From: a virus
Reading direction: 5' to 3' (one strand)
IMG/VR virus record: IMGVR_UViG_3300036828_000755
Span: 32,001-96,000 of that record
Length of the DNA: 64,000 bases
The position numbers and the translations under genes are program-made. This document shows, in pieces, positions 7,839-43,262 of the stretch. The notes below the pieces were generated by a model. The model searched no databases and had not been told where the DNA came from. It saw nothing but the letters and a program-made list of their open reading frames with translations. Position 1 is the stretch's first letter; every line of letters begins with the position of its first letter.

Positions 7839-8594
7839 TTAAAACGTGTTCTCTAGGGAAACCTGGACATCTGTCTCGTCTGGTCCGCTGCACGTGAACG
7901 ACAAATCGTCTGACCCATACCTTACCGTAAAACTTTGCCCATCCTCGTCAACGAACGGGAATAGGTACGCCATCCCCCAGTTGGCGATGAAGTGCGACTT
8001 AAGGTTGGCGAACTCAGCATCCCTGAGTCGCTGATAGGAAAGCATCCACCCCATCAAACCGTCTGTAGGATACCCCGAAAGTCCCCCGCCAAATTCTGGG
8101 GAAGTGTACTTGATGCCCGGCCTAGTCTTCGTCACGATTGTCTGGAAATTCTTCTTCTGTGAATAGGGCAGCGTGCTGATGGCCCCGTTCCACAAGACGG
8201 GGAACCGCAGGCCAGCTTGTCCTGGGGAATAGTTCTGCGTAACTGTCTGTGTCAAGCTCAACGGCGCGTCGTAGTACGTGCTCTTGTTTTCGGAACCAAT
8301 GAAGCTGTCAGAGTCAAGGCTCAGGTTGTCGTACGTGTCGGGTCCAAGGGTCAACGTTAGGTCTGTCCCATACTGGCCCAAGGAACCAGTAACGGCATTC
8401 TTGATCACGTTCTTCTGGGCCTGGCTCAGTATGGCGTACGGAAGTTGGAAGCTGAACAACGCAGAAGGCTGGACAACGTACCTCTGCTCGGAACCGTTCT
8501 GGAACCTCCCAATCACGGTCTTAAAAGAGATGGTCATCGTGAACGGGTAAAGGGCCGCGGACGTTCCCCTGATAATTGGCAGTGGTACTGGCAT
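7839..8594 (-). CDS. Distal tail (Dit)-like minor tail protein with two tandem similar domains, 251 aa
   Basis: Immediately downstream of the tape measure; internal duplication (LYPFTMTISFKTVI / LPYSQKKNFQTIV). Confidence 0.6.
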   Translation of the reverse strand: MPVPLPIIRGTSAALYPFTMTISFKTVIGRFQNGSEQRYVVQPSALFSFQLPYAILSQAQKNVIKNAVTGSLGQYGTDLTLTLGPDTYDNLSLDSDSFIGSENKSTYYDAPLSLTQTVTQNYSPGQAGLRFPVLWNGAISTLPYSQKKNFQTIVTKTRPGIKYTSPEFGGGLSGYPTDGLMGWMLSYQRLRDAEFANLKSHFIANWGMAYLFPFVDEDGQSFTVRYGSDDLSFTCSGPDETDVQVSLENTF

Positions 8595-8597
8595 GGT

Positions 8598-11500
8598 CTA
8601 CCTCGCTGCCCTCTGGACTTCCCTCGTTAGTAGGCTGTGTCCATCTTGCAAAGATTTAGCCGTCGCAAGCCCAACAGACCTGTTATTCTTCTGCAAATAA
8701 TCGTGGAAGCTGTTCGCGTCAAGCGTATGAACCGTGTAGTTGTTGTTGACCGTTACAGGGGGTTGTGGGGTAGGCGTGCGAGCCCCCGGGTTCACGATGG
8801 AGCCGAACTGGCTAGTCTGACCGCCCGGGACGTCGTAGTAGGTCGGTGGCCCGCCCAACAGCCCGTGCGTTTGCTTCCACACGAATCCCTGCGTGACGAG
8901 CGGGTACGGGCTAAAGTTGGAGGTGCGGAGTTGCCCCTTGACCCCTATGTCGGCGAAGGTCCCGGCAGAACTCGCCGTCACGTTCAAGGCTTGCGGGGCG
9001 AGGTACTGCCTCGCTTGAAGCATGTTGGATATGTCCTGGGCCCTCCTTGCAGGATTATTTATCATGCTACCGACGAGGGACGTCCCCATAGCCACACCAG
9101 CGAGTATCGCCTTTGAGATTGGCTCCGGGTCAATTATGGCGGCAGCCCCCAGCAGTGCCCCGGTTCCCTCGAGAGCTCCCCCAGCGCCGCCCCTCCTGAA
9201 GTCCTTGACTGCCTGGTAGGCCGCTATCCCTGCGGCCGCAACGCTCACGGCTGTGCCTATCGTGTTGGCCTGCGTCACAGCTGGCCTAGGACTGACGGGA
9301 GCAAGCGGTGGAAGTTCTTCTTCACCAGTGTCTATCCCAGGACTCACCGGGGCAAGCGGAGGTAAATCTTCTCCCTGGTATGCGCTAGCAAAGGCAAGTC
9401 CACCTCCACCTCCACCAATCAACGGAGTCCCTGCCAGGGCCCCGGCATTGCCGGAAAGGATTGATGCGTCCTGCCCAGGAAACAACGTTTCTGAACGATC
9501 TTGGTAAGCTTGGTCATCAAAGCTTATCGCAGTCGAGGTAGCAACTCCCCTATCCCCAGGCTGGTACCCAGGAAGCTGTGGATTCATGAACCCGAACTGG
9601 TAAGGCGTTATGGAGGGAGTGCCTCCCCACTCTGGGCCAAGGTTTGGGGGACCAACCCACCCGACCCTCCCACCGCCAAGGGCACCCATTGTCCCGCCAC
9701 TCGAGAGTCCGGGGGTAATTCCCAGGTTCTTCTCCATCTCGAGAAGTCTTGCCGTCAACCTGTTCAAGGCGTCGGTATTCTTGTCGGTGGCCGTGGTATT
9801 TTTCACGGTGACCACGTTCAACTGCGCGTCGATCTCCTCCTTTGTCGGGACCTTGGTGCCGAGCATCGTCCCACTCAGCATCTTCCCAAGCCAGGTGGGG
9901 GTGTGCACCGGATTACCTTGCTTGTCATACGTCACATTTTCCAACCCGGGCAAGAACATCTTGACGTCCTTCAACGTGTCGACCATGAAGTTCCCGAAAA
10001 CCTTGGAACCAAAACTCCTGAACTGGTCAGTCATGAAGCTCTTTATCGCGGGACCACGGTTGTACTGTGAGAAAGCTTGGAAGATTCCCTCGGAGAGGCT
10101 CCTGATCTCCTCGAGGTGCTGCTTGCGAAGGTCAAGCATCTGCTTGAGCTTCTCCATCTCAGCCTCACGAATTTGTTCTTCCTTCGTCTGTTCTGCCTCA
10201 AGTGTCTGGTCCCTGGCCTCGAACTCGGCCTGGATGTTCTTTAGCCGAAGCGTGTGTATGTTCTCGGCCGCAGCCATCTCCTCGTTCTGGCCAACGGCAA
10301 TACCCTGCAAGTATTCAACCCTGCTTTGCGTAACTTCGCCGATAGACTTGGCAAGCCTCTCACGGGCAGTATCGATCTCTTGCTCAACAACCTTTATGCT
10401 GTCGATCGCAGCCCTTGAGTTGGCCTGAGCCATGGCCAAGTCCCTCTGATTCTTCAAGGGGCCCTGACCCTCTATCGTTGTATATTTCTTGCGTTCCTCG
10501 TACGCTTCCTCAATCTCAGCAACCTGAGCTTTTCGGGTTCGCTGGATCTCGTCCAATGCCCTGTAAGCTGGAGACTGTCGCTTGTTAGCCTTAGCACTGA
10601 TCGTGCGATCGATCTGCATCGCAAGGTCTTGGCTGTCCTTGAACATGGCGATGCGCTGTTCAGCATCAGAGCCCAGCAGTTCCTTGTTATACCTCTTAAT
10701 ACCAGTGGTAAGCTCATCGAAGATTGCTACCTGTTCTTCAAGTCTCTTGTTTTCATCCTGGATTCCGCTTGTTGAGTCCATCCGAATCTGGGCTGCCGCA
10801 GTCATTGCATCGACGACGCTTCCGGTAGCTCCAGGTTTATCGAGGAGGTCCTGGGCAGCGATGCTAGCATCCCGAAGCTGTGACTTCTCCAACATCGCCT
10901 GGGTTGCCCGCTTTCTTTCGGTATCAAGTCGAATGATTGCGCTGTCCCTCTCAACTTCATTCGCGACGACCTGCTTATTATAGTCGTCAACATTATTCAA
11001 GAGTTTCAACGTCTTCTTGGCCGTGTTTTCCTTAACAATGTAAACGTCCAATATCGCCTGCTTCTCAGAGGCATAGTTCCCAATCGTGACGTTGGACTGG
11101 ATCTTCTCAATCGCCAGCTGATCCCTGGTCTGCCCAATCTGGGCCTGGGTCATCCTGTTAAGTTTACCAAGTTGGATGTCGCGGTTTTCCACAGCTTTAT
11201 CAGTAACATTCTTCCTGAGTTGGTCAAAATTCTCGAGTCTCTTCCTTCCAAGTTCACCGCCACCCAGCCCGGTAACCATCAGGTCTAGTTGGCGCTTCGC
11301 AACAGGATCATTAGCCTTGGCTCCTGCCTGCACCTCCTTGATCTTTTTTCCTAAAACGTCTATGTTAGCAATTTCTTGCTCATAGTCGAGCATGATCTTC
11401 TCACGAGGACTCCCCATCGACTTACGGGCACGAAGACCAACGTTGCCAAGTTCGCTGTACTTTTCATCAAGCTTATTCAACTTACCCTCGGCCTCAAGCA

Positions 11501-14500
11501 TCTCAGAAATGAATGCCTGGATCTGTGCCCTCTCGGTATTGATGATCAAGACATCGCCCTTTGCTTCTGCTTCACTCGCAGCCTTTTGGAGGTCGCTCTC
11601 CCTCACGATGGCGCCAGGCTTAACGGTGCCACCAGTATAGGCAGAAAACTTCTTCGCGAGTTCTTCCTGACTTTCTTTTTTTCGCTGACCCTCAGATTTC
11701 TTACGAGAAAACGAGCTAAACAACGTCCCAAACATCCCTAGTTCAGGATTCCCCTCAAAACCCGCCAAGAGCGCGCTCAAGACCCCATTCTTTCCCTTAA
11801 TATCTGCGATATACTTATCAAGGGCCTTAACACGGGCGTTATATTCCTCGCCGAGCCTACCTGTGAGATCTTCCTCAAGCACCATCCTGGTGCTTATGTC
11901 AGCTTTTATTTGCTCGAGTAATTGGTTTCTACTAGCCATGGCTTCTGGAGAACCGTCGCCAGAAGACTTACTTAACTTGTCAAAATCTGCAGCTGTTTTC
12001 TTCTTATAAAAATCTACGCGTTCCTTGGAATTGTCGGCGATGTCCTTGGCAGCGTCCTCGTTCATCATACCGTATGCGGCCAGGCCAACGGCTGCTGACG
12101 CAACCTTGAGTGGCAGTGGGATCACGGGTGTTGCCGCAAGAAACCTCATGAAAGAAAACGTGCCTAAGGCGCCCAAGGCTGCTGATATCGCTGTAAGAAC
12201 CTTTGCATACCTTGCCATGGCAGCAGAATTGTCGTCGGCGTACTTCACACCCTTTGACAGCATGCCAACAAACTTCGTAAACTCTGGCAAAAATGCCTTG
12301 CCAACCGAGTACTGCAGCTCAACCACGTTTTGCTCAAAAAGCTTAAGCTGTCCACCGGCCGTCATTAGGGACTTCTCATAAAGTCCATTAGCCTTTGCTC
12401 CCTCAAGGATAACGGCATTGAGCAAAGCTTGACGCTTCTCAACCTCGCTAGCAGGGCCAGTTTTTCCCTCAGCCTTTCGCTCTATGTTTAGCTGACGATT
12501 GACCTGCAACATGCTCACCGGGAGACCCATGCGGTGCAATGTCATGGTTAATCCGGTTGAGATGCCGGTAATGAGCCTCTCAGCTGCCTCAGACGGTGTT
12601 TGACCTGTGATTACCGAAACATTCTGAGCAACCTTGGCTAGCTGACCAGCCTTGCCAACATCAAGTTGCGCAAATATCATCTTCTGGACAAGCTGATTAG
12701 CAGACTCAGTTGTCATATTGAGCTTCTTAACGTTCTGGACGCTCCCCATCACGGCGTCAACGTCAAGCGCATTTATCTTGGCTATTTCCTTAGTAGAAAA
12801 CACCAGCGTGTCAACCTGCGCAGCATAGGTCGCCATCTGCTTAACGCCAGCAAAAACGGCTGACCCAGCCGACGCCAACATCGATGCCCCGACCCCAAAC
12901 CCGAGGTATCCTTCCCTGGAGCCAAACGCCCGACCACCACCGCCGCCACCACCCGCGCCACCGCCGGGCCCGCCCCCGCCAGGACCACCACCCCTGGCAT
13001 CCTCTGACTTGACGTACCTTACCTTTGCCTCGTACTCTTTTCTGTAAGCTGTCTGCCTCTTCTTACTCTGGTCTTCTTCCTTCTTATTTATGTCCATCTG
13101 GATCTTGGTAGAAGTCCCAGCAAACTTCCTCTCGTTGTCTATCCTAGCCTGGTCAGCCTTTTCCCTGGCCGCGGCCCTCCTCTTCTCGATCAAGCCTATC
13201 TGATTATCGATCTGCTCCTCAGCCGCGACCCGACCCTCGCCAACATCCGAAATCTTCGACTTGGCCCTCTCCTCGAGCGTACGACCACCGAGCATCGTGT
13301 AGTATCTTTTCTCATACTGCTGCCTGGCTTCTTCCAACTCAGCCGAACCACCGTACATAGCCCTCGCTGCTGCGGTCGAGGTCTGCCTTCGAAGAGTCTC
13401 CAACTTATCGAACTTGGGAAATGGCCCTTCCTGCCCCGGCTCAAGTCCCCAGTCACCGGGAGACAACCGACTTGCCTCACTCCTGTACCTAGCCCTTATC
13501 ATCCTAAGCTGAGGGTCACGAATCGAACTCTCCAATCTTTCTTGTATGTCCGCATCAGTAAGCCCGAGCCTTTTCTTGGAAGCACGAAGTTTTCTCCCAA
13601 GACGACCCTGGGCCTTTACCGCGTCGCTGTAGCGCTTCTCTGCATCTAGCTCAGCAAAAGCTAGGTTAGTCGTCCTCTCCTCGTAGGTGCCCTGGATTCC
13701 CTCGAGGCGACCTCGTGCGATTCGTGTGATAGCAGCCCGGCGAGCTTGCAGCCTGGATACCTGGGCATCGAACGAGGCCTCAGTCCCAGCTAAGCCTAAT
13801 CCTAGCGCAGATTCCCTGGACCCACGACGCCTCGCGGCTTCCTCCATCTTTGCCTTAGCAGTAACATCCCTGAATTCGTTTAGTTTACGGGCAGCAGCAT
13901 CAACGGCGTCGGCCAGGTTCTTGAGCCTTGACTGAAGAGCATCGTACCTCATCTGCGCCCGAGGATCATCAGCACTTGGCGGTCCAAAGGGCGCTCCCCT
14001 GTTTACCCTAGACTCGGCCGACTCTGGCGGCTCGAGGGGGTGGCGACCAGCCTTCGTTCGATCCCGCATCTCCTTGATTTTCCGGTACAAGGGATACAGT
14101 CCAAAGGACATGAAGTCAAGGTTACCAAACCCAGCCTCACTACCACCCCTCCCACCCCCAAGGTCGCCCATCCCCCTCAATGCCTCACCAATGAGGTTTC
14201 GGTGGGCACGGGGTTGGAAACTGGCACCGGTGGCCCCCGAGAAGAAATCCCTCTGTGCTTGGGCAATCTTCGCAGCCGCTAGGCGCCTACCGATTACTTG
14301 TCCCTCGGTCATTATCGAGGTAAGTCCCCTGAACCTGGGGTCCTCGAAACCGACCTGGTTAGCCATCTGCGCAGCCGGGCGAATAGCTAACATGGCTGGC
14401 TTTTCCCGATATCTACTAATGAACGAAGCGATCGCTTTTTGACTATATGGGGGAGCCGCGCGCTGCGCCCACGGCGAACTCAGCATGCTGGCAAATTCTG

Positions 14501-16103
14501 CCCGCAGATCCTCTTTCTTCCCTCTGTCAGCTGCCTCGAACTGGGCCATTTCCCGAGCAATCCCGAAACCAGGTTCTTGCACCTGCCTATAATGCGTGTT
14601 TATTCCCTGCATCAAAGCAAGCGCAAGCTCGTCCCCGTGCCTTATGTCTTCCTTGACTTGGCGACCCCTGCCACGGCCCTGTTGAATTCCTTCCTGATGC
14701 CTGGCTTGCCTCTCGTACTGGGTCAAGAAGGCGGCAGAACTAGCTGGTCCAGACATGATCGCCATGTTCCTGTAGAACGATTCGATCACCCCGATTCGCC
14801 TATCAAGACCAATGGCTGCCGCACCGATTAGTCCAGGGGTTGTTTCGGGAGCAACGCCAGAACCTTTCTTGATACCGTAATCGGTACTACGAGATGGGCG
14901 ACGCGACCTAGCCTCGATGCCGCCCTCTATAGTTGCTATGACGTGCTGCGCATAGACTTCGTGACCCTCATCATCGTAAGCAGCAGCCCTTCTCCTATAC
15001 CTCGCAACAGGAGACATGTATCGCGTCGCACCGCCACCGATCCGACTCTGCAAGTTCTCCAGTATCTCATCTGCCTGTTGCTTAACCGTTGCCAATATCT
15101 GCTGCTGCCTCGTCAACGGCCCCTGGTTGGCGAGCAACTGCGCCATGTATGGCTGCCCACCGAGCGGTGACCTAGATGCAAGAAGTCTGAGCGAACCTCC
15201 CACATCCCCCTGTGTTCGGTGAGCTTGACCAGCATCAATCCCATGAAACCTAATGAGATCCTGAAGAGATCGGGATTCGAAGCCGTGCATCCTCCACGGT
15301 ATTCCCCTCAAAGAATCCATCCAGATCTTTGAAGCCACGTAAGGAACAAGTTGTTGGACGAACTTCTTATCAAAGGGAGCGTTGTGGGCAATGAGGAAGT
15401 CAGCCTTATTGACCAAGTGACGTATCATGGTCGTCGAGATCGCCTGACCCTTGAGCAATTCAGCTGACAGACCTGGAGAAAGAAACTGGTGACGGCCCTG
15501 GTAACTCAGCTGCTGCATCCCCGTGTAGCTCTTCAACACCTTACCAAATTCCCCAGTTTCCTTGTTGAAGGAAAACAGTGTTGCGGTAAGCTCAACAACC
15601 TGATGCTTGAGGGCTTTTAACCCAGTCGTCTCCGTGTCTATGAAGAGTGCTTGGCCCATCACCTTTCCCTTGGTGACAGGGTCATACATCCCTTGCCGAG
15701 TGGCCATCTGCCGCTGTATTAGGGCCCCGTGCTTCTCGAGTTCCCTCCGAAGTGCAGCAGTCCCACTAGTCTCGGCAATCCTGGTAGCAGCAGTCTCCGC
15801 CATCCTCTCCAACCGATACGGCGTGTACCGGTTCAAGACTTGCTGGGCAGTCATCAGGACGCCCGCAGAAGACCCTATGCCAGCCGTCCTCTTCTCGAGT
15901 GCCCTGATGCTTGGCTCAATCCTCTGGATTGCCTCGACTATGTCGCCGACAGATTTGCCAGCAGCAACAGCTCGACGAACAACGCCGTCCAACGACATCG
16001 AGAGTCGGGACGCAAGCTTGTCCGCGTCCTGCATCTCGGCCTTGCCTTGGTTGGTGAAGCGAAGTACTACGCTCAGTATTTCGTCGTCAAACAGTTGCGC
16101 CAT
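8598..16103 (-). CDS. Tape measure protein, 2501 aa, with N-terminal DEDDh exonuclease domain
   Basis: Longest ORF, between tail chaperones and Dit; Ala/Gln/Lys-rich helical composition; TMP core (QVDTLVFSTKEIAK...AAERLITGISTG); hydrophobic segments. Confidence 0.9.
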   Translation of the reverse strand: MAQLFDDEILSVVLRFTNQGKAEMQDADKLASRLSMSLDGVVRRAVAAGKSVGDIVEAIQRIEPSIRALEKRTAGIGSSAGVLMTAQQVLNRYTPYRLERMAETAATRIAETSGTAALRRELEKHGALIQRQMATRQGMYDPVTKGKVMGQALFIDTETTGLKALKHQVVELTATLFSFNKETGEFGKVLKSYTGMQQLSYQGRHQFLSPGLSAELLKGQAISTTMIRHLVNKADFLIAHNAPFDKKFVQQLVPYVASKIWMDSLRGIPWRMHGFESRSLQDLIRFHGIDAGQAHRTQGDVGGSLRLLASRSPLGGQPYMAQLLANQGPLTRQQQILATVKQQADEILENLQSRIGGGATRYMSPVARYRRRAAAYDDEGHEVYAQHVIATIEGGIEARSRRPSRSTDYGIKKGSGVAPETTPGLIGAAAIGLDRRIGVIESFYRNMAIMSGPASSAAFLTQYERQARHQEGIQQGRGRGRQVKEDIRHGDELALALMQGINTHYRQVQEPGFGIAREMAQFEAADRGKKEDLRAEFASMLSSPWAQRAAPPYSQKAIASFISRYREKPAMLAIRPAAQMANQVGFEDPRFRGLTSIMTEGQVIGRRLAAAKIAQAQRDFFSGATGASFQPRAHRNLIGEALRGMGDLGGGRGGSEAGFGNLDFMSFGLYPLYRKIKEMRDRTKAGRHPLEPPESAESRVNRGAPFGPPSADDPRAQMRYDALQSRLKNLADAVDAAARKLNEFRDVTAKAKMEEAARRRGSRESALGLGLAGTEASFDAQVSRLQARRAAITRIARGRLEGIQGTYEERTTNLAFAELDAEKRYSDAVKAQGRLGRKLRASKKRLGLTDADIQERLESSIRDPQLRMIRARYRSEASRLSPGDWGLEPGQEGPFPKFDKLETLRRQTSTAAARAMYGGSAELEEARQQYEKRYYTMLGGRTLEERAKSKISDVGEGRVAAEEQIDNQIGLIEKRRAAAREKADQARIDNERKFAGTSTKIQMDINKKEEDQSKKRQTAYRKEYEAKVRYVKSEDARGGGPGGGGPGGGAGGGGGGGRAFGSREGYLGFGVGASMLASAGSAVFAGVKQMATYAAQVDTLVFSTKEIAKINALDVDAVMGSVQNVKKLNMTTESANQLVQKMIFAQLDVGKAGQLAKVAQNVSVITGQTPSEAAERLITGISTGLTMTLHRMGLPVSMLQVNRQLNIERKAEGKTGPASEVEKRQALLNAVILEGAKANGLYEKSLMTAGGQLKLFEQNVVELQYSVGKAFLPEFTKFVGMLSKGVKYADDNSAAMARYAKVLTAISAALGALGTFSFMRFLAATPVIPLPLKVASAAVGLAAYGMMNEDAAKDIADNSKERVDFYKKKTAADFDKLSKSSGDGSPEAMASRNQLLEQIKADISTRMVLEEDLTGRLGEEYNARVKALDKYIADIKGKNGVLSALLAGFEGNPELGMFGTLFSSFSRKKSEGQRKKESQEELAKKFSAYTGGTVKPGAIVRESDLQKAASEAEAKGDVLIINTERAQIQAFISEMLEAEGKLNKLDEKYSELGNVGLRARKSMGSPREKIMLDYEQEIANIDVLGKKIKEVQAGAKANDPVAKRQLDLMVTGLGGGELGRKRLENFDQLRKNVTDKAVENRDIQLGKLNRMTQAQIGQTRDQLAIEKIQSNVTIGNYASEKQAILDVYIVKENTAKKTLKLLNNVDDYNKQVVANEVERDSAIIRLDTERKRATQAMLEKSQLRDASIAAQDLLDKPGATGSVVDAMTAAAQIRMDSTSGIQDENKRLEEQVAIFDELTTGIKRYNKELLGSDAEQRIAMFKDSQDLAMQIDRTISAKANKRQSPAYRALDEIQRTRKAQVAEIEEAYEERKKYTTIEGQGPLKNQRDLAMAQANSRAAIDSIKVVEQEIDTARERLAKSIGEVTQSRVEYLQGIAVGQNEEMAAAENIHTLRLKNIQAEFEARDQTLEAEQTKEEQIREAEMEKLKQMLDLRKQHLEEIRSLSEGIFQAFSQYNRGPAIKSFMTDQFRSFGSKVFGNFMVDTLKDVKMFLPGLENVTYDKQGNPVHTPTWLGKMLSGTMLGTKVPTKEEIDAQLNVVTVKNTTATDKNTDALNRLTARLLEMEKNLGITPGLSSGGTMGALGGGRVGWVGPPNLGPEWGGTPSITPYQFGFMNPQLPGYQPGDRGVATSTAISFDDQAYQDRSETLFPGQDASILSGNAGALAGTPLIGGGGGGLAFASAYQGEDLPPLAPVSPGIDTGEEELPPLAPVSPRPAVTQANTIGTAVSVAAAGIAAYQAVKDFRRGGAGGALEGTGALLGAAAIIDPEPISKAILAGVAMGTSLVGSMINNPARRAQDISNMLQARQYLAPQALNVTASSAGTFADIGVKGQLRTSNFSPYPLVTQGFVWKQTHGLLGGPPTYYDVPGGQTSQFGSIVNPGARTPTPQPPVTVNNNYTVHTLDANSFHDYLQKNNRSVGLATAKSLQDGHSLLTREVQRAAR
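15170..15660 (-). other. DnaQ/epsilon-like 3'-5' exonuclease (DEDDh) domain inside the tape measure protein
   Basis: ExoI ALFIDTETTG (15621-15650), ExoII LIAHNAPFD, WMDSLRGIPW, ExoIII AHRTQGD (about 15205-15225); all catalytic residues present. Confidence 0.85.
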
Positions 16104-16109
16104 CTCTAA

Positions 16110-16981
16110 TTACCGACGTCCTTTTGTTTGGGATTGGGACTGCTGTTGGCGAGGGACTTCCCTGATAGAGGCCGACTGCAGAGCATCGACCCTCGCCTGT
16201 TCATCTTGGAGGAGCACGAACGCATCTACGATGCGGGACGGCCATTGCAAAAGATCCCCGCCGTAGGGAGCCGCGCCGAACTCCTTCATTATCTTGGTTC
16301 GCGCGAAAAGTTGTATCAACTCCGTAGACTTAGTTGATATGAGTGAGACAGGGCACTCGCTAGTTTCGGTGCCTGAGATGTTGAACGGACGACCGTGGTG
16401 GTCGTGGTATCCTGCTTCCCAGCATGACGCCCTCTTCGGGTCTACATGGTCTGGGAAATAGGTATTACAATTTCTTTGTTGCCAGTATCCCCTTCGCTTA
16501 CACCGTCCACAATCGAAGACTTCTGACTCATGTCCGCCGGTGCGCCAGAAATGGTAGGCGATGGTGAGTTTTTTCTTTCTGCGCCATTCAGCTCTGACTC
16601 CGACTTGATCGCGTCGATGACCTCGTCAAACAGTGCGGACGGGAAATCCTTCCAATCCTCGACGCCGAGCGGCTTCCCGTCAGACTCGATCCCGTCTATC
16701 CGCTTCAAGCCCCACAGGAGCCAGGCAGGGTTCACGGTGCCGAGCATGATACCGTCCAACTCTTCTTGTAGTTCGAGCCACTTAGCAGTGTCGCGGGTCT
16801 CCTCGTCGACCTGCTCAATGCTCGCTTGCTCCTTGATGATCTCACGTATCCTGCGGTTCGGCCCGGAGATCTTGGACCTCAGCTCAAGTCTTCGGCCCTC
16901 AGTCATCTTGTGCAAATAAAAAACGACGCCTTCGAAGATCTGAGACTCGCGGCGCCTGAGAGTCTCATGCTTATAGACCAT
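16110..16981 (-). CDS. Tail assembly chaperone -1 frameshift product (gpGT-like)
   Basis: The -1 frame after A AAA AAC is open (KLTIAYHFWRTGGHESEVFDCGRCKRRG...SECPVSLISTKSTELIQLFARTK...) and joins ORF 16110..16319. Confidence 0.75.
16442..16981 (-). CDS. Tail assembly chaperone (gpG-like), 179 aa
   Basis: Position between major tail and tape measure genes; ends just after a slippery heptamer. Confidence 0.75.
   Translation of the reverse strand: MVYKHETLRRRESQIFEGVVFYLHKMTEGRRLELRSKISGPNRRIREIIKEQASIEQVDEETRDTAKWLELQEELDGIMLGTVNPAWLLWGLKRIDGIESDGKPLGVEDWKDFPSALFDEVIDAIKSESELNGAERKNSPSPTISGAPADMSQKSSIVDGVSEGDTGNKEIVIPISQTM
16568..16574 (-). promoter_or_regulatory. -1 ribosomal frameshift slippery site A AAA AAC
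   Basis: X XXY YYZ heptamer in the correct phase (AGA AAA AAC). Confidence 0.75.
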
Positions 16982-17052: not shown

Positions 17053-18339
17053 TTATGCGATGACGAGTGAAAATTCATCTCGGACCGCGAGCGACGTCGT
17101 CGTCGCCCTGCTGTCTGCATAAGAGGCATCGAACCGAAGTTGTCCATCACCCAAGACGTGGGCGGCTAAGTAGACGTTCTTGAGCAAGAACACGAAGGTG
17201 TTACCAACGTTGGTCCCAAGGTTAATGGCGAAGTCGACCGGGATCTTGTTGTCGCCCCACGACTTGATGGTGTTCACGGCCACCGTGTCGTCGTCATAGA
17301 CGTTGAACGTAAGTGTTATGTTCCTAACATCACCCTCAGGCAAGCTCGGGTAGTAGCTACCGAAGGTATCCCTCACAAGGAGATTGTTCGTCTGCACGCG
17401 GATCGTTGCGTTACGAATAGTAGGGAATGAGGCTGAGCCCGTGGAGAACGTTGCACCGTCCGTCGTCGATGCAGCCTGACCCGCCACGAAGCGCCCAGTA
17501 AATCCCGGGATGATGTTACCGCTCGTCACTGGGGCAGTAGGTTCAGGAGGGAAGGTCAACAAGCCTCCCTTTTGGTAGACGTCAGAATTCCCGTAGTCCT
17601 TGCTCCTCAGCACCCAGTAACAGTCGCCGTTCGCCTGCCACGTGGCAACGTCCTGGTTGAAATTGAACGTCGACTCAGTGACGAGGCAGGTGTTGCCAAC
17701 CCTCTGGTCCAACGTCGTCGGCGTCCTGAAAGACCAAAGGGAAAACTGCGCGATCTCGTCCACGAACGTGTACTGTAGCTTGACCCTGCTCGCGGTCCCA
17801 CCTGCACCAGCACCTTGCCCATTGCCAATAGACCCACACAACGTCAACGTAGTTGAGCTTGCGGCAAAGGCGTACCAGGTGCCATTAGCATTGGTATTGA
17901 TGGTATGTCCAGTGACCGTCACAACCTCGAATGATCCTGAAGGAATCCCGTGCGCGCCACAAGATACCACGATAGGTGTTGCATCGGTCGAGGACGTGAC
18001 AGCCGTCGAACCAACACCAACCGCAGCAGTCTGCCCAAAAATGGCATAGAGCAGCGGGTCAGCATCTGGAGCAACGCCAGGTGTCCCGTTGCCAACAAGG
18101 GACATCTCTATGCTCCAGCGCCCCATCCTGCGACCACCGACCATCCCTTCCATCGAGCGGGTGCCGGTCTTATCAGCGCGCTCGAGCAAGGCCACTTCGT
18201 TCTGCAACTCCATGCGGATGAACCTGCACGCGTTGGCGTTGCCCACGGTTGCCGTGCCCGATGTATTTGGGATGATCCCAAACGCTGGCTGTTGCTGAAG
18301 ATACGCGCGTTCAAGTCGCGAGAAAGAATACTGTGCCAT
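17053..18339 (-). CDS. Major tail tube protein, 428 aa, with an inserted beta-rich domain
   Basis: Position before chaperones; tail-tube-like pattern (ERADKTGTRS...GRRMGRWSIEMSL...LYAIFG; RNATIRVQTNN). Confidence 0.75.
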   Translation of the reverse strand: MAQYSFSRLERAYLQQQPAFGIIPNTSGTATVGNANACRFIRMELQNEVALLERADKTGTRSMEGMVGGRRMGRWSIEMSLVGNGTPGVAPDADPLLYAIFGQTAAVGVGSTAVTSSTDATPIVVSCGAHGIPSGSFEVVTVTGHTINTNANGTWYAFAASSTTLTLCGSIGNGQGAGAGGTASRVKLQYTFVDEIAQFSLWSFRTPTTLDQRVGNTCLVTESTFNFNQDVATWQANGDCYWVLRSKDYGNSDVYQKGGLLTFPPEPTAPVTSGNIIPGFTGRFVAGQAASTTDGATFSTGSASFPTIRNATIRVQTNNLLVRDTFGSYYPSLPEGDVRNITLTFNVYDDDTVAVNTIKSWGDNKIPVDFAINLGTNVGNTFVFLLKNVYLAAHVLGDGQLRFDASYADSRATTTSLAVRDEFSLVIA

Positions 18340-22435: not shown

Positions 22436-23335
22436 TTAGCTGAGCACCTGCAGCCCGAACACGTTGCGAAGGACGGCGACGCCATAGAGCACGTCGACGG
22501 TAAACTGCTGCGCAAGGGTATTGGGGGCATAGCTCAACACTACGCGCATACCGAAGTTCCCGAGGGTGGCATACTCCGCCACGGCACCGGTATTCGGGAG
22601 AGGCTTGGGAAGCATGCGCATCACGAGGGCAAAGGCGTCCCGAGCAAAGGCAAGGTTGTACGTGGTGTTGCCAACCTTGGAAACGTACTGGCTGCGCATG
22701 ACAAAGAAATTCTTGAGTCTGCCGACCTGGCCAGACGGGATGACGTTCGAATACTCGGGCGAAACCTTGTCTTCCGAGAACCGCTGGATCTGGCGCATGT
22801 CAGAATAGGTCGAGCCGCTAACGAGCAAGAACTTCGGCAAGGAGTCGGAGACCTTCGCGTTGAACAGCGCAGTTTCAGCGCTATCGACCACGGATTCCGT
22901 GATCGTCGTGTTCCCGGTACCGACCAACGTGTTCGCAGTCAAGTTGAGGTAAAGCTGGGTAAGGTCGGTCTCGATTCGTTCCGCCAGCGAGATGATCGCT
23001 GGCATCATGTACATCTGGAGCAAGTCCGGGTGTGCCAGCACCCTCGTAACGTCCGGGATCTGGAAAGACGATTCCGCGTGCGTGTTGATGACCACCTGCG
23101 CATTACCAAGGCTGGGGTTCTGCGTCGCAACAGACCCGCCTTCTGCAATGTTGTTGGCGGCCATGACTGGCGGAATCGGTATATTGACGGTGTCCCCCTG
23201 GTTGGCGAGGTCTGCCTCATACGACCTGTTGACCAGGTTCCCCATGACGAGGTTACCGACCAACGCCGGCAAGGCGTCCGCCGCAACAAGTTTTACGATC
23301 GCATCAGCAACATTTGCTGAGGTAATGGCTGGCAT
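22436..23335 (-). CDS. Major capsid protein (HK97 fold, P22 coat-like), 299 aa
   Basis: Follows scaffold; GDTVNIPIPP and DVLYGVAVLR motifs typical of P22 gp5-like coats. Confidence 0.85.
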   Translation of the reverse strand: MPAITSANVADAIVKLVAADALPALVGNLVMGNLVNRSYEADLANQGDTVNIPIPPVMAANNIAEGGSVATQNPSLGNAQVVINTHAESSFQIPDVTRVLAHPDLLQMYMMPAIISLAERIETDLTQLYLNLTANTLVGTGNTTITESVVDSAETALFNAKVSDSLPKFLLVSGSTYSDMRQIQRFSEDKVSPEYSNVIPSGQVGRLKNFFVMRSQYVSKVGNTTYNLAFARDAFALVMRMLPKPLPNTGAVAEYATLGNFGMRVVLSYAPNTLAQQFTVDVLYGVAVLRNVFGLQVLS

Positions 23336-23359: not shown

Positions 23360-24145
23360 TTACGCGTTCTGTAGCGCAGCGCCAATGGACGCCACTATGC
23401 TATCTCGAACATCGGACTTCATGCCGACCTTGATATCGTTCAAGTCGGCCTTAACTCCCATTCGAACTCCAGGACTCGCTGGTGCTCCTGAACCCGAGGC
23501 GCCAGAGGCACGCAACAGGTAGGAATGTTCCTTGGTAAGGAAATCCTTGACAAAGGCATCGATCGGGAAATCACTACCGTTAATCGTGCCAACGAAGGAA
23601 CCGTCGTCAAGTTTCCGTACAGCTGGCTCAACCAGCGTGAAGGCCGTGTTCGAGGCCGCGTCGCTGATGAAGTGCATGTTCCCGAGCGCCTGCCTCACCG
23701 TCCCGTGCCGACTGGAAGTTTCCGCACGCTTCTCGGCCTCTTCCTTCTCCTTGCGAAGCGTCTCAATCTGCTGTCCCTGCGCCTTAGTCGTGTCCTGCAA
23801 CTGCTTAAGCAGGACATTGGTCTGGGGATCCGGGTTACCACCACCCTGTGGAGTGGGGTTCGGGTTCGGGCTCGGGTTCGGGCTCAACTTCCCTATAGCG
23901 TCGTTGATAGAAGTGAGGGAAGCATTGATCGGCGTAAGCTGCTCCTGGATAGCGGGAGCAAGCCCCTCCTTCTTAAACTTGTCGAGGGCCCCGGCCATCT
24001 TCGCCTCAACTACCTTGTTGACCTCGGTAATGACAGCTTCCATCGTCAACACAGCATTTGGGTCCGCGCCTCCCGCACCTCCCGCACCCCCAGCAACTCC
24101 TGCCGGCGCCATGAGTGGGCCCGCGTGAAACCTGTTAGTCAACAT
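23360..24145 (-). CDS. Capsid scaffolding protein, 261 aa
   Basis: Directly upstream of capsid gene; low-complexity N-terminus, coiled coil, KEHSYLLRASGASGSGA C-terminal motif. Confidence 0.75.
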   Translation of the reverse strand: MLTNRFHAGPLMAPAGVAGGAGGAGGADPNAVLTMEAVITEVNKVVEAKMAGALDKFKKEGLAPAIQEQLTPINASLTSINDAIGKLSPNPSPNPNPTPQGGGNPDPQTNVLLKQLQDTTKAQGQQIETLRKEKEEAEKRAETSSRHGTVRQALGNMHFISDAASNTAFTLVEPAVRKLDDGSFVGTINGSDFPIDAFVKDFLTKEHSYLLRASGASGSGAPASPGVRMGVKADLNDIKVGMKSDVRDSIVASIGAALQNA

Positions 24146-24271: not shown

Positions 24272-25429
24272 TTATGGAACGTACTTCACACGGTTGCCGT
24301 CAGCCGGGTCATACCAAAGCTGTTTCGATCCGGCCGCCGGAGCCACTGATGGCAGTGCTGAAACTGCCAGCGTCGGCGTGGTCAGTGCTGGGCCGGTGTC
24401 ATCCGGCGTACCGATGGTGCAATGGCCGCTATAGTCGATGATCAGCCGATTGGTTTCGTTTCCGCTGGTTCTGAACCAAATCCCGCTGCCCCCGCGTCCA
24501 GTGATTATGAGGTCGCTGCAATAGAGGCGAAACGATGACAGTCCACCGTTGATCGTGGCGCAGTGGACCACGTTGTTCGTCATGACCAGGTCATCCACCA
24601 AAGTCAGCGATGCTCCCGCGTCATCGGTGGCCCCGATGGTGCAGTGCCCTGCGGAATCGATTGACAATCGCTGTGTTGGCGTGCTTCCAGTCAACAAAGA
24701 CAGACTGCCGGATGTAGTAAAGAGGTTGTGACCCGCCGCATCAATGTCGAAAGACCACGGCGTTTGCGTGGCTGGGTTTCCCTGCAATCCTTGTGGTCCG
24801 GTTAAACCCTGGGCACCGGTTGGACCTGTTGCTCCGGGTGCGCCATCGGCGCCGGGAACGCCCTGCGGTCCGCTGCTGCCAGCAGGACCAGCAACACCCT
24901 GCGGTCCCTGCGATCCGGTTGCTCCGGTTAAGCCCTGCGGCCCAGCCAGGCCCTGCGGCCCGGGTGGTCCCTGGATGTTGCCCGCATCCGTCCACGTCGT
25001 GTTCCAGACCCAAATGTGGTCCGTGTCCTGCGTGATGTAAGCGTCGCCGGCATTGGCTGATGCGGGCAGATCCGCATGCGTCGGCACGCTGCCAAGCAGC
25101 TTGATGCCGGTGCCGGGAGTGCCTTGCGGACCGGGAGTGCCTTGCGGACCGACGGCTCCGGTTGAACCGGGAGGGCCTTGCGGTCCCTGTGTTCCGGGCG
25201 ATCCCTGCAAACCCTGCGGCCCCTGCATTCCGGGAGGCCCCGAGGAACCGGTGGGACCAGCTGGGCCTGGTGCTCCCTGCGGACCGGGCGGTCCCGGTGG
25301 TCCGGCTAAGCTGGCTTGGCTGATTCCCACGGAAAACTGCACCTTGGGTACAATAGTAGCAGAAAATGTCTGGCCAAGAACTACGGGAGCAGGAGATTTT
25401 TCGGTAGGAGTCAAGGGTTTACCTCGCAA
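24272..25429 (-). CDS. Collagen-like (Gly-X-Y) fibre protein, 385 aa
   Basis: Two long GPxGPx blocks and a duplicated C-terminal motif ([12 protein letters not shown] / [12 protein letters not shown]). Confidence 0.8.
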
Positions 25430-28802: not shown

Positions 28803-30140
28803 CTATCTTACCTCCATCAAAAGCTCAGGCGATCCTTCGCCGTTGCCTACCGAACATCCTTCTTGTTCCATGACCTCGGCGTGCATCTTGCTCAACTCCT
28901 CGTTCAAGTCCGTGCGGTACTGCTTATTCGGTATGATCAACTCGTCGAGCAACTCGTACGGCTCGTCGAATGCCTCGTAGCAATCGTCCGCCATCCCAAT
29001 CGCGTCCGCAACCACGCCCGACCCAACAGAATGGACCAGGCCATCACCGTCAGCCATGACCTCGAACAGGTAGAAGCAATCTTCCTTTCCTTCTGGTATC
29101 CCACGGATTGGCACACCAACGTTCGGGCAAACTTTCTCTATGTCCGACAATTTCTTAGCTTCAAGAGGGTATGGGGGGATGGTGACGCGAACAGCTGCAC
29201 CAAACTGGTCTGTCATGTTCACGGCCGAGGCCTGACCCTTGGCAACGTCGGACATGAACTTCCCAACCCCTCCACGGAGCATCTTTATCAAGGTCGGCAT
29301 AGCATCATAGCCGAACCTTGGGGTCCACTCAAGGCCCCACACCCCCTCCCCGTTGACCACGGTGTTCAGGTCCATCGGGCCAACGTACCCGGACTCGACG
29401 ATGAGCCTCTCGGCCCTCAATATCCCCTCACTGATTATCCTGCAAGTCTCGTCGTGCTCGGCCCACACGAGGTTTCCAGCACACCCGGTCGCTTGTCCCA
29501 GCTCCCCGTTCAAGGCTTTCTTGACCTCTACGGTATGGTTCAACGGACGCAAGAAGCGGTTGCCGTCGCACCATGCCTCCGTTGAAACACACACGCCCTC
29601 CTTGAACTCTTGCAAGATGAACGACTCAATTTCCTTCCCAAAATACTTGTCAACGTACTCCGCCCACCTGACCAAGTCGTCGCCATCGTGGGAGCAGTAC
29701 GTCAACGAGCAAGGGAGATCCTTGCCCGAGGGCTTGAAGACGAACCTCTTGCCATCGTCGTGTTCTTCCAGGAACGACCTGACCTCGTCCACGCTGAAGT
29801 CGTCGAACTTCGCCGTGTACGGTACCTTGATCCCGGCCTGCTCCATCAAGTTCAGCCCAAACATCCTGTCCTGCTCAAGCTCATCGGCAAACACCGAGCC
29901 CGCCACGGTCGCGAATCCTTCTTTACGGAGGTTGTCGGCAATGTCTCCCATGCCGGAAAAGTCGAATACCACGACCGTACCTTCTGCGGGCTCGATCTTC
30001 TCTGTCTTGGGTATCAGCCCGTCCCAGACAGAGCGATAGTCGGGCTGGTTGATGTACAGCTCAACCTGGTTTCCCTCCTGCTCAATCTGGTGAAGGAGGT
30101 GCGCGCCCTCCCCGACGTTCGACACCATCAAGAATCTCAT
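28803..30140 (-). CDS. PurD (GAR synthetase)-like ATP-grasp ligase, 445 aa
   Basis: ELEQDRMFG, FVFKPSG, FILQEFKEG, ELGQATGCAG, LEWTPRFGYD motifs parallel the PurD ATP-grasp motifs. Confidence 0.75.
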   Translation of the reverse strand: MRFLMVSNVGEGAHLLHQIEQEGNQVELYINQPDYRSVWDGLIPKTEKIEPAEGTVVVFDFSGMGDIADNLRKEGFATVAGSVFADELEQDRMFGLNLMEQAGIKVPYTAKFDDFSVDEVRSFLEEHDDGKRFVFKPSGKDLPCSLTYCSHDGDDLVRWAEYVDKYFGKEIESFILQEFKEGVCVSTEAWCDGNRFLRPLNHTVEVKKALNGELGQATGCAGNLVWAEHDETCRIISEGILRAERLIVESGYVGPMDLNTVVNGEGVWGLEWTPRFGYDAMPTLIKMLRGGVGKFMSDVAKGQASAVNMTDQFGAAVRVTIPPYPLEAKKLSDIEKVCPNVGVPIRGIPEGKEDCFYLFEVMADGDGLVHSVGSGVVADAIGMADDCYEAFDEPYELLDELIIPNKQYRTDLNEELSKMHAEVMEQEGCSVGNGEGSPELLMEVR

Positions 30141-40979: not shown

Positions 40980-41206
40980 ATCCTCGGTTCTTCCCGCCCC
41001 ATCCTCTTCCTCTCTTTTCTCCTGGCTTCCAGGAACGCCCTCAGCGACTCCTTCGCCTCGTCCGGCGAAGCGCCGACAGCCCAGTAGCTCGTGTCTTTCG
41101 CGTCGGGTGACAGGGGGTCGTGGCCTTCTGCCCGGTACCAGTCAGGCTCGCCGCTGAGCCGGCCCAGCTGCCTGACCCTGAGGTTCGCGACATCACCTAG
41201 CTCCAA
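40973..41206 (-). CDS. Hypothetical protein, 77 aa (weak HicB-like AVGASPDEA motif)
   Basis: ORF track; motif resemblance only. Confidence 0.45.
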   Translation of the reverse strand: MELGDVANLRVRQLGRLSGEPDWYRAEGHDPLSPDAKDTSYWAVGASPDEAKESLRAFLEARRKERKRMGREEPRIW

Positions 41207-41411
41207 CGCAGCTCCTCTCGGGAGAAGGACTCACCTGGTGGGCCGTTGTTGCGGCCGACGAGGCATGCCAGAACCCGAGCGCGAAGAACAGCGCGGCGAG
41301 CAGGACGAACTCGACCAGCGACAACTCCTCGTCCATCAGCCTGGACACGTAGTAGCCGACGAGCGCTATCGTCGCGGTGAAGGTCAACGCGTCATGGTTG
41401 AGCAGCGGCAT
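41193..41411 (-). CDS. Small membrane protein, 72 aa
   Basis: Two hydrophobic segments. Confidence 0.5.
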   Translation of the reverse strand: MPLLNHDALTFTATIALVGYYVSRLMDEELSLVEFVLLAALFFALGFWHASSAATTAHQVSPSPERSCVGAR

Positions 41412-41537
41412 GGCCAGGCCTCTTCTTCTTCACCCATATCTTCATCTTCACGTCCACTCCCACTTCCAGACTTCTCGGTATGCTCCGCATACCGGAAGTA
41501 ATCATCGGCATCCCGCGTCCTCCCAAAATTGTGCCAT

Positions 41538-41572
41538 CTCCACTAAACCATTATAACACAGGACATCACCAC
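41538..41572 (-). promoter_or_regulatory. Leftward promoter-like element GTGG-N7-CTG-N3-TATAAT-GGTTTAGTG
   Basis: Perfect TATAAT at 41550-41555 at the head of the leftward block; same motif as the four copies at 49.0-49.8 kb. Confidence 0.6.
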
Positions 41573-42935
41573 GAAAACAGATAAATTAACTGCGGTAGCC
41601 ATTTTGTGAGTATTATACCAGTGTAAAATACCACAACGATTTTCCTCAGTTTTACAGGGGGTTGTTTCGGAAGCCATGTACATTTTTGAAACATAGACGT
41701 TTACTACGAGAAAACTCATGTTACAATGTAACCTGATGAATTTGGGCACAACCCAAACCTCGCAACGAAGAAACCCCGCAGTACCACCGCAGTCCCACCT
41801 GTTCTTTTCTCCCGAAAAAATCCTCGCAGCAACGAACATCCTCGATTCGTCACTAAAAAAGATTAGTTGCTTCTTAATCAAATTTATTGGCGCTATTGTC
41901 CGCCTATTGGACCGAGGATATGAGCCAATAAGTCACAAAATCTCCCTAACTCCTTTCAAATCAATAGCATAGGTCCCGCTTGAATGGGCCTGGTTATTGG
42001 CACTATATATGTGACATGGAAAAATTTTTTACTTTCACTGCCATGTCACATACACGGATCCAATATCCCAATAACGGGTTACGGAAGTTGTTGAAAACAA
42101 AGATCAATTAATACCGTGAGAGCCAATAGCTGGACAATAACGCCAATAGGTACAAATTTTAATCTTTGTAAGAGCGTCTCGCAAGTTGTTGATAACAAAG
42201 ACTTGTTGAGTCCATTTCCCATCATTGGCAGATTTTAATAAACCTATGGCAAGAACTCGTAAGTTGTTGAAAACAAAGATCAATCACCTCCGTTTTTAGT
42301 TTTTTACCTACTACATTAGTGTTTGCACTCCATACACATAGTATTAATTTTTCTTAATCTTCACTACAGACTATCGATGTAGTTTAAGTTTCTTCTCGTG
42401 GCGACCGCGTCGACGCGACGCAGCCTTCCTTTTCTTACTCACCCCAGACTCCAGACTCCAGACTCCAGACTCGAGTAGGCTGCAGCTTGCGATGAGTTAC
42501 TGGGAGCTTGTGAGGAGAAACCGGAATCCAGAATCTGGAGTCGCTTCGCTACCTCTCGTCCCTCGAGTACAGGGGGTTAGGTCGATAACTCAAAAGTAGC
42601 CTATATTAGACTAGGGAAAATCTTACAAAGCAGTTTTTCGAAAAGTTCCCGCGGACGGCTTCGGGGGCGGGAGTCACTTCTACGTGATTCTTACTCAACA
42701 GACCCCCTGTATATCGGTACCAAACACGGTCGCGGTATATTTGGCCATAGGTTGGGGTAAAACTTAGGAAAGAAAAGGAGAATAAGTAGCAAGTAATGTA
42801 CGGACTAAAGTTGCAGAACAAGAAGGTGATCGGGCAGATGTCCCTGACTCGCGCATTCGCGAAGATGGAAGCCACGGTCGTTGTTGCCGTTGTTCGGTTG
42901 AGCGATGGCGCTATAATAAAGGAGAAGAAGTAATC
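41573..42935. other. AT-rich non-coding strand-switch region with iteron-like repeats (candidate origin or genome-end region)
   Basis: Markedly AT-rich; no credible ORFs; AAGTTGTTGAwAACAAAGA at 42085, 42183 and 42261; CCAGACT x4 at 42444-42471. Confidence 0.55.
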
Positions 42936-43262
42936 GTGAAGAACTTGATCAAGGATGCGATGCTTGCTCTGCAAGTATCGAAGAAGGAGGGGAGCACTAG
43001 TATACAAGCTAGTGTTCCTCAAACAATGGAGGTAAGCTTTCCCAGGTCATCTAGGGAGCAAGAGCTGCTGGAAGCAAGGGAGCAGATGAAGGGTCTTGCA
43101 GCACTGTTCAAGGAGGTGCAAAACAAGTGGTGGTCAGCGGAGTGCAAGGGCTTCAAGGCGATCGCTGATAAGGTCTTCGAGATGAGGAAAGAGGTCATCA
43201 AGAAGCAGGATGAGCTGTTGGAGAAGTATCCGGAGCTCATTGAGATGGTGACGGAACTCTAA
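42936..43262 (+). CDS. Hypothetical coiled-coil protein, up to 108 aa
   Basis: First rightward ORF. Confidence 0.5.
   Translation: MKNLIKDAMLALQVSKKEGSTSIQASVPQTMEVSFPRSSREQELLEAREQMKGLAALFKEVQNKWWSAECKGFKAIADKVFEMRKEVIKKQDELLEKYPELIEMVTEL

Follow-up and report, generated by a model that had tools for sequence, protein, structure and literature searches.

Can the tape measure protein (TMP) of a phage tail carry a nuclease into the cell that the phage infects? The question is raised by an open reading frame (ORF), here referred to as P0001, in IMGVR_UViG_3300036828_000755, a single IMG/VR virus record of 131,754 bp with a completeness of 91% according to CheckV. The window, by which we mean the whole stretch of 64,000 nucleotides that was analyzed, covers positions 32,001 to 96,000 of this record, and P0001 is located on its minus strand. 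In a preliminary description, the 2501 amino acids (aa) encoded by this frame were taken to be a TMP with an intact DnaQ-like 3'-5' exonuclease domain. We put a probability of about 0.6 on the reading that the exonuclease is an enzyme cargo that is delivered by the virion on the N-terminal, Arg-rich extension of the TMP.

The stretch is present in two public sequencing runs, both of which are soil metagenomes, and no RNA runs are listed among the sequencing runs that hold it. The phage is best read as a siphovirus-like, uncultured soil phage with a genome of 132 kb. A search with the sheath profile PF04984 gave no match, which does not prove a non-contractile tail, and a megablast search with 19 kb against phages gave no match.

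Identification of an exonuclease domain in P0001

The interval in which the domain was first noticed, 15170-15660, corresponds to residues ~149-311 of P0001. The frame, the domain and its catalytic motifs are placed as follows.

8598-16103, minus strand: whole ORF of P0001, a putative giant TMP with an N-terminal cargo extension; an uninterrupted frame of 2501 aa
15120-15710, minus strand: DEDDh 3'-5' exonuclease module in cargo slot 1 (residues 132-328), as predicted from profiles, fold and its clean absence from the related protein P0156
15630-15638, minus strand: Exo I motif D156-x-E158 (FIDTETTG) in the sequence, kept in 57 of 57 aligned domains
15369-15371, minus strand: Exo II aspartate D245 (AHNAPFD) in the sequence, also kept in 57 of 57
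15204-15221, minus strand: Exo III motif H295-x4-D300 (AHRTQGD) in the sequence, with the His rather than Tyr that gives DEDDh its "h", again kept in 57 of 57

All three motifs on which the preliminary description had based the domain are present, and profile searches, the predicted structure and structural comparisons agree with it. The best-matching family was PRK09182 (NCBIfam NF006615), with an E-value of 5.7e-36 and 123.8 bits for residues 114-328 on profile positions 15-227 of 307. The domain had been described as being of the PRK09182 type, which holds for the nearest family and does not extend to membership by the curated rule, for which the cut-off is 207 bits; the C-terminal third of the profile is absent from the P0001 domain. 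Matches were also obtained to PHROG 192, "DNA polymerase exonuclease subunit" (E 1.4e-18), and to the DEDDh profile of PADLOC (E 1e-15). For Pfam RNase_T (PF00929), the P0001 copy scored 18.5 bits, below the cut-off of 24, and the same profile matched eight of ten close homologs at E-values up to 0.05, the best of which reached 31.1 bits over the whole 164-position profile, above the cut-off.

An AlphaFold2 (AF2) model of residues 1-520, built from a 58-sequence alignment, had pLDDT values >90 over residues 130-350. A Foldseek search of the PDB returned only DnaQ-fold exonucleases at a probability of 1.00, including the N-terminal domain of DinG from S. aureus (8zef), Cas2-DnaQ from S. thermophilus (8h2f, 8h18), exonuclease I (1fxx), RNase T and TREX1/2, with further matches to the exonuclease domain of PolC (2p1j) and to Pol III epsilon (2gui). 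By profile and by predicted fold, residues ~132-328 are thus confirmed as a DnaQ-like DEDDh 3'-5' exonuclease with a complete set of catalytic residues.

The nearest stand-alone proteins have ~40% identity to the exonuclease domain of P0001. A search for shorter homologs at E 1e-10 returned none, a result that is uninformative on stand-alone relatives. In the closest stand-alone exonuclease relative, P0012 (351 aa), weak TPR-like matches are found in the tail. The next gene after that of P0012 encodes a UvrD-type helicase of 828 aa with a Zn ribbon (L004 3105-6736 for the two together), and Mrr-like and HTH/M78 genes are located nearby. It is possible that P0012 and the helicase represent an exonuclease-helicase pair in a mobile or defence context. 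The gene contexts of two other stand-alone relatives, P0013 and P0014, were uninformative.

Conservation of the fusion

Nine proteins of 2515-2824 aa share the N-terminal domain with P0001 at 56-62% identity (query residues 100-340). More divergent giants with ~40% identity were recovered in an exhaustive representative search (P0011, P0032, P0034 and P0055), and an alignment-based search identified one more relative on an IMG/VR contig of 116,843 bp; nothing was found in a single-sequence search of IMG/VR. A survey for the same fusion thus yielded 15 giant proteins from independent assemblies, and the five loci that were inspected are syntenic. Logan contigs from two further runs, which may derive from the same source sample, span positions 14500-16500 with zero differences or indels. 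A misassembly or a sequencing frameshift that joined two genes, which the preliminary description had named as a possible source of error, is excluded by the 15 fusions, the independent assemblies and these indel-free contigs.

All 15 TMP-embedded copies, among them the very divergent P0157, retain D156, E158, D245, H295 and D300, although the embedded domains share only 30-60% identity; the five residues are likewise found in each of the 42 aligned stand-alone relatives. This pattern in the alignment indicates that the active site of the exonuclease is under selection. In an alignment of the ten closest proteins, identities were 0.52-0.68 in the exonuclease region, 0.69 in residues 1-50, 0.65 in residues 401-450 and up to 0.62 in the TMP core; these are the best-conserved parts of P0001, as compared to 0.15-0.45 for most of the ruler. 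In a quick IQ-TREE analysis, the 15 embedded domains were split from the 42 stand-alone relatives by a branch with an SH-aLRT value of 100. The tree would fit a single acquisition, with the exonuclease either lost later from the lineage of P0156 or never present in it.

Probable identity of P0001 as a tape measure protein

Two segments of P0001 follow the N-terminal extension and its linker, and these would make up the TMP proper.

12054-12917, minus strand: predicted TMP core (residues 1063-1350), from the phrog_28 match, BLAST to P0159 and hydropathy
8601-12053, minus strand: putative long helical "ruler" with a Gly/Pro-rich C-terminal part (residues 1351-2501), from its composition and the low conservation that is typical of rulers

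The TMP family phrog_28 matched residues 1235-1348 in a segment search (E 2.8e-5), and P0001 was the sole match to this family genome-wide (E 5.3e-8). Residues 1086-1313 share homology with the core near the N-terminus of further large proteins, including P0159 (BLAST E 6.7e-17), a protein of 1441 aa with NlpC/P60 and SLT domains at its end that matches annotated TMPs in ~1900 cultured phage records. Hydrophobic segments at residues 1067-1087 and 1321-1339 and several Gly-rich stretches also fit a TMP. The gene order, from the major capsid protein through ORFs of 428 aa and 179 aa, a small ORF, the giant ORF and a DUF2460-like ORF to an ORF of 1278 aa, is kept in four other loci (L001, L003, L010 and L011); apart from the weak DUF2460 matches, the neighbors that define the position of P0001 in this order are named by position only.

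The tape measure label of the preliminary description is supported, less strongly than the exonuclease domain, by the sole phrog_28 match and by the fitting gene order, and it found no counterpart in Pfam, where PhageMin_Tail (PF10145) did not match P0001. Together with a comparison of the TMP-core profile to the TMP of Gordonia phage Skysand, which was not significant, and with tail genes next to P0001 that are without family matches, this speaks against a tape measure. A Pfam search with the whole protein returned nothing, and segment-wise searches of Pfam and PHROG returned phrog_28 only. A tblastn search with the TMP core against cultured phages gave no match, and a profile of the whole protein gave only marginal matches to PDB sequences. 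No muralytic domain was detected in Pfam scans of the whole protein and its segments. On balance, P0001 is very probably a phage TMP, an identification that is well supported, not proven.

Modular architecture of the N-terminal extension

The regions that surround the exonuclease module are as follows.

15711-16103, minus strand: N-terminal helical leader (residues 1-131), with identities of 0.49-0.69 and six helices in the AF2 model
12996-15119, minus strand: remainder of the extension (residues 329-1036), basic and rich in Arg, with a conserved helical bundle at ~424-510
14445-14597, minus strand: putative cargo slot 2 (residues ~503-553), empty in P0001 and filled in relatives
12918-12995, minus strand: poly-glycine linker (residues 1037-1062), 69% Gly, between the extension and the TMP proper

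The leader is conserved across the whole family, including P0156, an orthologue without the exonuclease. P0156, which is 2264 aa long and comes from a syntenic locus, aligns to residues 1-131 and 329-2473 of P0001 and is cleanly without residues ~127-327 (~200 aa), with the flanks conserved on both sides. Since exactly this segment is missing between conserved flanks, the alignment identifies the exonuclease domain as a discrete, removable module.

In ordinary TMPs (P0158-P0160), the homologous core starts 90-140 residues from the N-terminus, and the first ~1036 residues of P0001 therefore constitute an added extension. Residues 1-1036 have a net charge of +41, with 111 Arg as compared to 54 Lys. 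Within this region, pLDDT values >90 were also obtained at residues 430-470 in the AF2 model. Searches of the ESM Atlas with residues 329-1036 gave scores <0.9 only, with weak leads to TMP-like clusters. A Gly run is found at the matching relative position in nine of ten family members.

The second slot was recognized from insertions in the relatives. In P0002, P0004 and P0009, 109-132 aa are inserted after reference position 548 of the alignment, and the insertion in P0002 matches DUF4406 (E 1.3e-16). In P0157, a cytidine/dCMP deaminase (E 3.4e-13) with intact HAE and PCADC motifs is located between the equivalents of residues 502 and 553. As one part of the explanation that we favor as a whole, the Arg-rich extension of 1036 residues would rather probably serve as a carrier for enzyme modules.

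Comparison to known systems

The closest known system is gp96 of the Thermus phage P23-45 (also P74-26, G20c and TSP4), a TMP of 5002 aa with an N-terminal virion RNA polymerase (RNAP) (Chaban et al., 2024, Nat Commun 15:317, PMC10770324). In virions, the RNAP forms part of full-size gp96. It has reached the phage DNA by 5 min after infection, and it transcribes the pre-early genes; the authors propose that it acts at the TMP pore during DNA entry (PMC10770324). Both gp96 and P0001 have a nucleic-acid enzyme N-terminal to the TMP part in a single ORF that encodes a giant TMP, and the phage that encodes gp96 is long-tailed. The enzymes differ, being a two-barrel RNAP in gp96 and a DEDDh exonuclease in P0001, and unlike gp96, the P0001 family has two swappable slots and an orthologue without the exonuclease. 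Among known proteins, gp96 is the only experimentally supported model for how P0001 would work.

TMPs with peptidoglycan hydrolase domains are known from T5 (pb2), from mycobacteriophage TM4 and from many phages of Gram-positive bacteria. They resemble P0001 in having a catalytic domain on the TMP for use at infection, and the core of P0159 is homologous to that of P0001. Their domains target the cell wall and are usually C-terminal or in the middle of the protein, whereas the P0001 domain is predicted to target nucleic-acid 3' ends and is placed in an N-terminal extension. The DnaQ-like DEDDh exonucleases, such as PRK09182, DinG, Cas2-DnaQ, ExoI, RNase T, TREX1/2 and epsilon, share the fold and the same five catalytic residues with P0001, but the P0001 domain differs from the stand-alone enzymes in that it is embedded in a putative virion structural protein and forms its own clade.

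Polyvalent proteins of phages and conjugative elements, P1 DarB and the N4 virion RNAP are large multidomain proteins that are delivered with the DNA and provide enzymes for the first minutes of infection. These proteins are thought to travel in the capsid and not as a tail ruler. They share with the P0001 family the logic of enzymes codelivered with DNA and the swapping of domains among relatives. P0001 has one enzyme domain and its relatives two, as compared to the several conflict-related domains, including signature ones, by which polyvalent proteins are defined, and no characteristic polyvalent-protein domain turned up in P0001 in Pfam, PHROG and NCBIfam scans. Tape measures and exonucleases of the DnaQ type are both absent from the text of the paper in which polyvalent proteins are described (Iyer et al., 2017, PMC5512222).

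The preliminary description knew of no described nuclease cargo on a TMP, and our full-text literature searches, with many subscription papers outside their coverage, likewise found no published exonuclease or other nuclease borne by a TMP. The principle of a TMP-fused virion enzyme is already known; what appears to be new is a TMP-fused virion enzyme with a new type of cargo and a modular architecture with two slots.

Proposed function of the exonuclease

In model siphophages, the tail tube is occupied by the TMP, the C-terminus of which is at the tip, whereas the N-terminus points headward and is located beside the end of the DNA. It is expelled at infection and helps to form the conduit for the DNA. 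From a conserved, modular domain with an intact active site and from its TMP context, we infer the presence of the exonuclease in the virion, its delivery, its activity and its substrate along the following lines. P0001 would be incorporated into the tail at full length and would leave it at infection. Its N-terminal enzyme part would adjoin the leading end of the genome and come to lie at the cytoplasmic mouth of the TMP conduit or close to it. There, the exonuclease would degrade free 3' ends at a time when phage genes are not yet expressed. By analogy to gp96 of P23-45, such a delivery at time zero is plausible. The preliminary description, which had proposed this scenario with genome ends, retron msDNA or oligonucleotide signals as candidate targets, is partly supported overall, in that the anatomy it gave is right and the delivery is plausible; the removable nature of the module, the second slot in relatives and the N-terminal extension are additions to it.

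Two targets seem about equally plausible. The first is the entering end of the phage DNA, which may be trimmed, freed from a blocked end or protected; in a variant of this option, the exonuclease would make a 5' overhang, on which end-dependent nucleases of the host load poorly. The second comprises nucleic acids at the site of entry that have free 3' ends and belong to the host or to a defence system. DinG-exo, Cas2-DnaQ, ExoI, RNase T and TREX mostly act on single-stranded 3' ends or on DNA 3' overhangs, and these structural neighbors suggest that the substrate may be a DNA 3' end. Cyclic oligonucleotide signals are unlikely substrates for a DEDDh enzyme because they have no free 3' end. The deaminase and DUF4406 of slot 2, which are also nucleic-acid or nucleotide enzymes, fit a reading of the modules as "conflict cargo".

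Several considerations weigh against delivery into the cytoplasm. In this uncultured phage, the N-terminal part could be removed by cleavage or left out of the virion. TMPs of model siphophages exit the tail with the C-terminus first and the N-terminus last, and the N-terminus of P0001 might for this reason remain in the tube or in the periplasm, short of the cytoplasm. The main objection is a physical one: the width of a folded DEDDh domain is close to that of the lumen of the tail tube (~4 nm), and a set of three or more copies would therefore fit only if staggered or partly unfolded. Finally, the small number of TMP copies per virion limits the catalytic capacity.

Alternative explanations

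A wider version of the delivery proposal, which we regard as tentative and somewhat doubtful, is that the N-terminal extension of giant TMPs is a general modular platform for delivery, a siphophage counterpart of the polyvalent proteins. The slots would be interchangeable and would accept a DEDDh exonuclease, a cytidine deaminase or a DUF4406/nucleoside-deoxyribosyltransferase-like domain, and an exonuclease at the entry pore would, at time zero, defeat host defences that need free 3' ends or that recognize incoming ends.

It is unlikely, in our judgement, that the exonuclease acts in the producing cell, either by trimming the DNA end that enters the tail at head-tail joining or as a proteolytic N-terminal fragment that is absent from mature virions. 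Processing of TMPs during assembly is known from the textbook case of lambda gpH, which is converted to gpH*, and the poly-Gly linker ahead of the TMP proper in P0001 could be a cleavage site or a flexible site. The short distance of 90-140 residues between the N-terminus and the core of ordinary TMPs also suggests that residues 1-1036 are dispensable for the ruler. However, conservation of the leader (residues 1-131) goes along with that of the TMP even in P0156, which suggests one functional polypeptide, and fusion to a structural protein that is made late would be an odd route by which to supply an intracellular enzyme. Moreover, the only N-terminal TMP enzyme that has been tested stays on the full-length protein in virions (PMC10770324).

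Could the domain instead be a non-catalytic clamp for 3' ends, which holds the leading end of the genome atop the tail and pilots it into the cell? The headward position of the TMP N-terminus beside the DNA end, as established in model siphophages, and the strongly basic extension around the domain (+41), compatible with DNA binding, would suit such a role. The invariance of all five catalytic residues over deep divergence does not, because it includes the general-base His, which binding alone does not need, and P0156 shows that the delivery of DNA as such does not depend on the module. We consider a clamp to be improbable.

Slightly more improbable still is that the giant protein is not a TMP but another large virion or injected protein within the tail module, be it internal, of the ejection type or of the polyvalent type. 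The lack of a match to a Pfam TMP family would allow for this, as would the tail neighbors, which could not be annotated, and the failed fold prediction for the putative tail tube protein. Set against these are the match of phrog_28 to P0001 alone in the genome, the homology of the core to bona fide TMP architectures, the lack of any other ORF in the 132-kb genome that could serve as TMP, and the scans that returned no signature domain of polyvalent proteins.

The last alternative concerns replication. The P0001 domain is the only RNase_T-type exonuclease in the genome, and the phage encodes a family A DNA polymerase of 690 aa (G000:C1 2212-4284; L008 736-2808), the N-terminal part of which aligns with PDB 7pbk from residue 26. 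Exo-type motifs DxE (IDVE) and NxxYD (NLLYD) were read by eye from this alignment, and Pfam PF01612 (DNA_pol_A_exo1) did not match the phage polymerase, which nonetheless appears to carry its own proofreading motifs. That the domain is a proofreading subunit of the replisome, fused to the TMP by accident or misassembly, is suggested by the JGI label "DNA polymerase III epsilon subunit-like" on two homologs and by stand-alone epsilon-like genes as the best matches in cultured phages, but is essentially refuted by the 15 fusions in independent assemblies with synteny across the five inspected loci, by contigs from two more runs that are identical over both junctions, by the exo-type motifs of the polymerase and by the inability of a late structural protein to serve early replication.

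The structural module and its surroundings

P0001 belongs to a structural module on the minus strand, which runs from ~32.8 kb down to position 1 of the window. Its other genes are listed below in module order, an order that is found again in L001, L003, L010 and L011, the four loci with homologs of the giant protein.

31134-32828, minus strand: large terminase, the first gene of the structural module
28803-30140, minus strand: 445-aa ATP-grasp protein (GARS_A-like, E 4.7e-08), between the terminase and the portal-sized gene
after the ATP-grasp gene in module order, minus strand: portal-sized protein of 570 aa, named from its size
24272-25429, minus strand: 385-aa collagen-like, tail-fibre-like protein with many PHROG tail fibre matches (best E 1.9e-35)
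23360-24145, minus strand: scaffold, as placed in the structural module
22436-23335, minus strand: P22-type major capsid protein of the structural module, followed by several small ORFs and then the 428-aa ORF
17053-18339, minus strand: 428-aa ORF, candidate major tail protein from its position, with 69-73% identity to counterparts in four related loci
16442-16981, minus strand: 179-aa ORF, candidate tail assembly chaperone from its position only, directly upstream of the small-frame neighbor of the giant ORF
16110-16445, minus strand: small reading frame, conserved in relatives, that overlaps the 179-aa chaperone candidate and precedes the TMP gene
7839-8594, minus strand: 251-aa ORF, candidate distal tail protein directly downstream of the giant ORF, with a weak DUF2460 match (E 0.0037)

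The ATP-grasp gene is located inside the head module, an arrangement that recurs in L010, and the collagen-like gene sits between the portal-sized and scaffold genes, an unusual site for a fibre protein. Neither the 428-aa ORF nor the 179-aa ORF matched any family in profile scans. For the 428-aa ORF, an AF2 model from a five-sequence alignment had a pLDDT of 34 and was not used, and the comparison of its profile to the PDB was uninformative. Counterparts of the 179-aa ORF are 154-180 aa long in all syntenic loci. ORFs in L011 and L003 match the small frame at 16110-16445 with 52% identity. As compared to the 179-aa ORF, the small frame is in the -1 frame, and it lacks its own start codon close to the conserved N-terminus. 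The pair looks like the frameshift of G/GT-type tail chaperones; no canonical slippery heptamer was seen for the suspected frameshift. The L011 counterpart of the 251-aa ORF has the same weak DUF2460 match, and the 251-aa ORF is followed in the module by ORFs of 1278 aa and >1331 aa. An NCBIfam scan of ten neighboring structural proteins gave no usable match.

GC skew and AT skew flip sign near 42 kb (~41000-43000), where the GC content falls to 0.47; the flip marks the point at which plus-strand genes take over from the structural module on the minus strand. In L001, a gene for a 237-aa OrfB_IS605/Cas12f-like TnpB protein (9285-9998) is located directly upstream of the gene for the giant TMP P0011, within the tail module.

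Implications for tape measure proteins

Should the exonuclease indeed be delivered along with the DNA, TMPs would be vehicles for cytoplasm-acting enzymes of several kinds, beyond their roles as rulers and wall-cutters. This would extend a principle for which the RNA polymerase of P23-45 is the only case shown to date. The natural orthologues with and without the exonuclease, and the variants of slot 2, provide a comparative series for the role of the cargo, whether in defence or in a DNA-end problem. It would also change the annotation of giant phage proteins from metagenomes that are now called "hypothetical" or are misnamed "Pol III epsilon-like".

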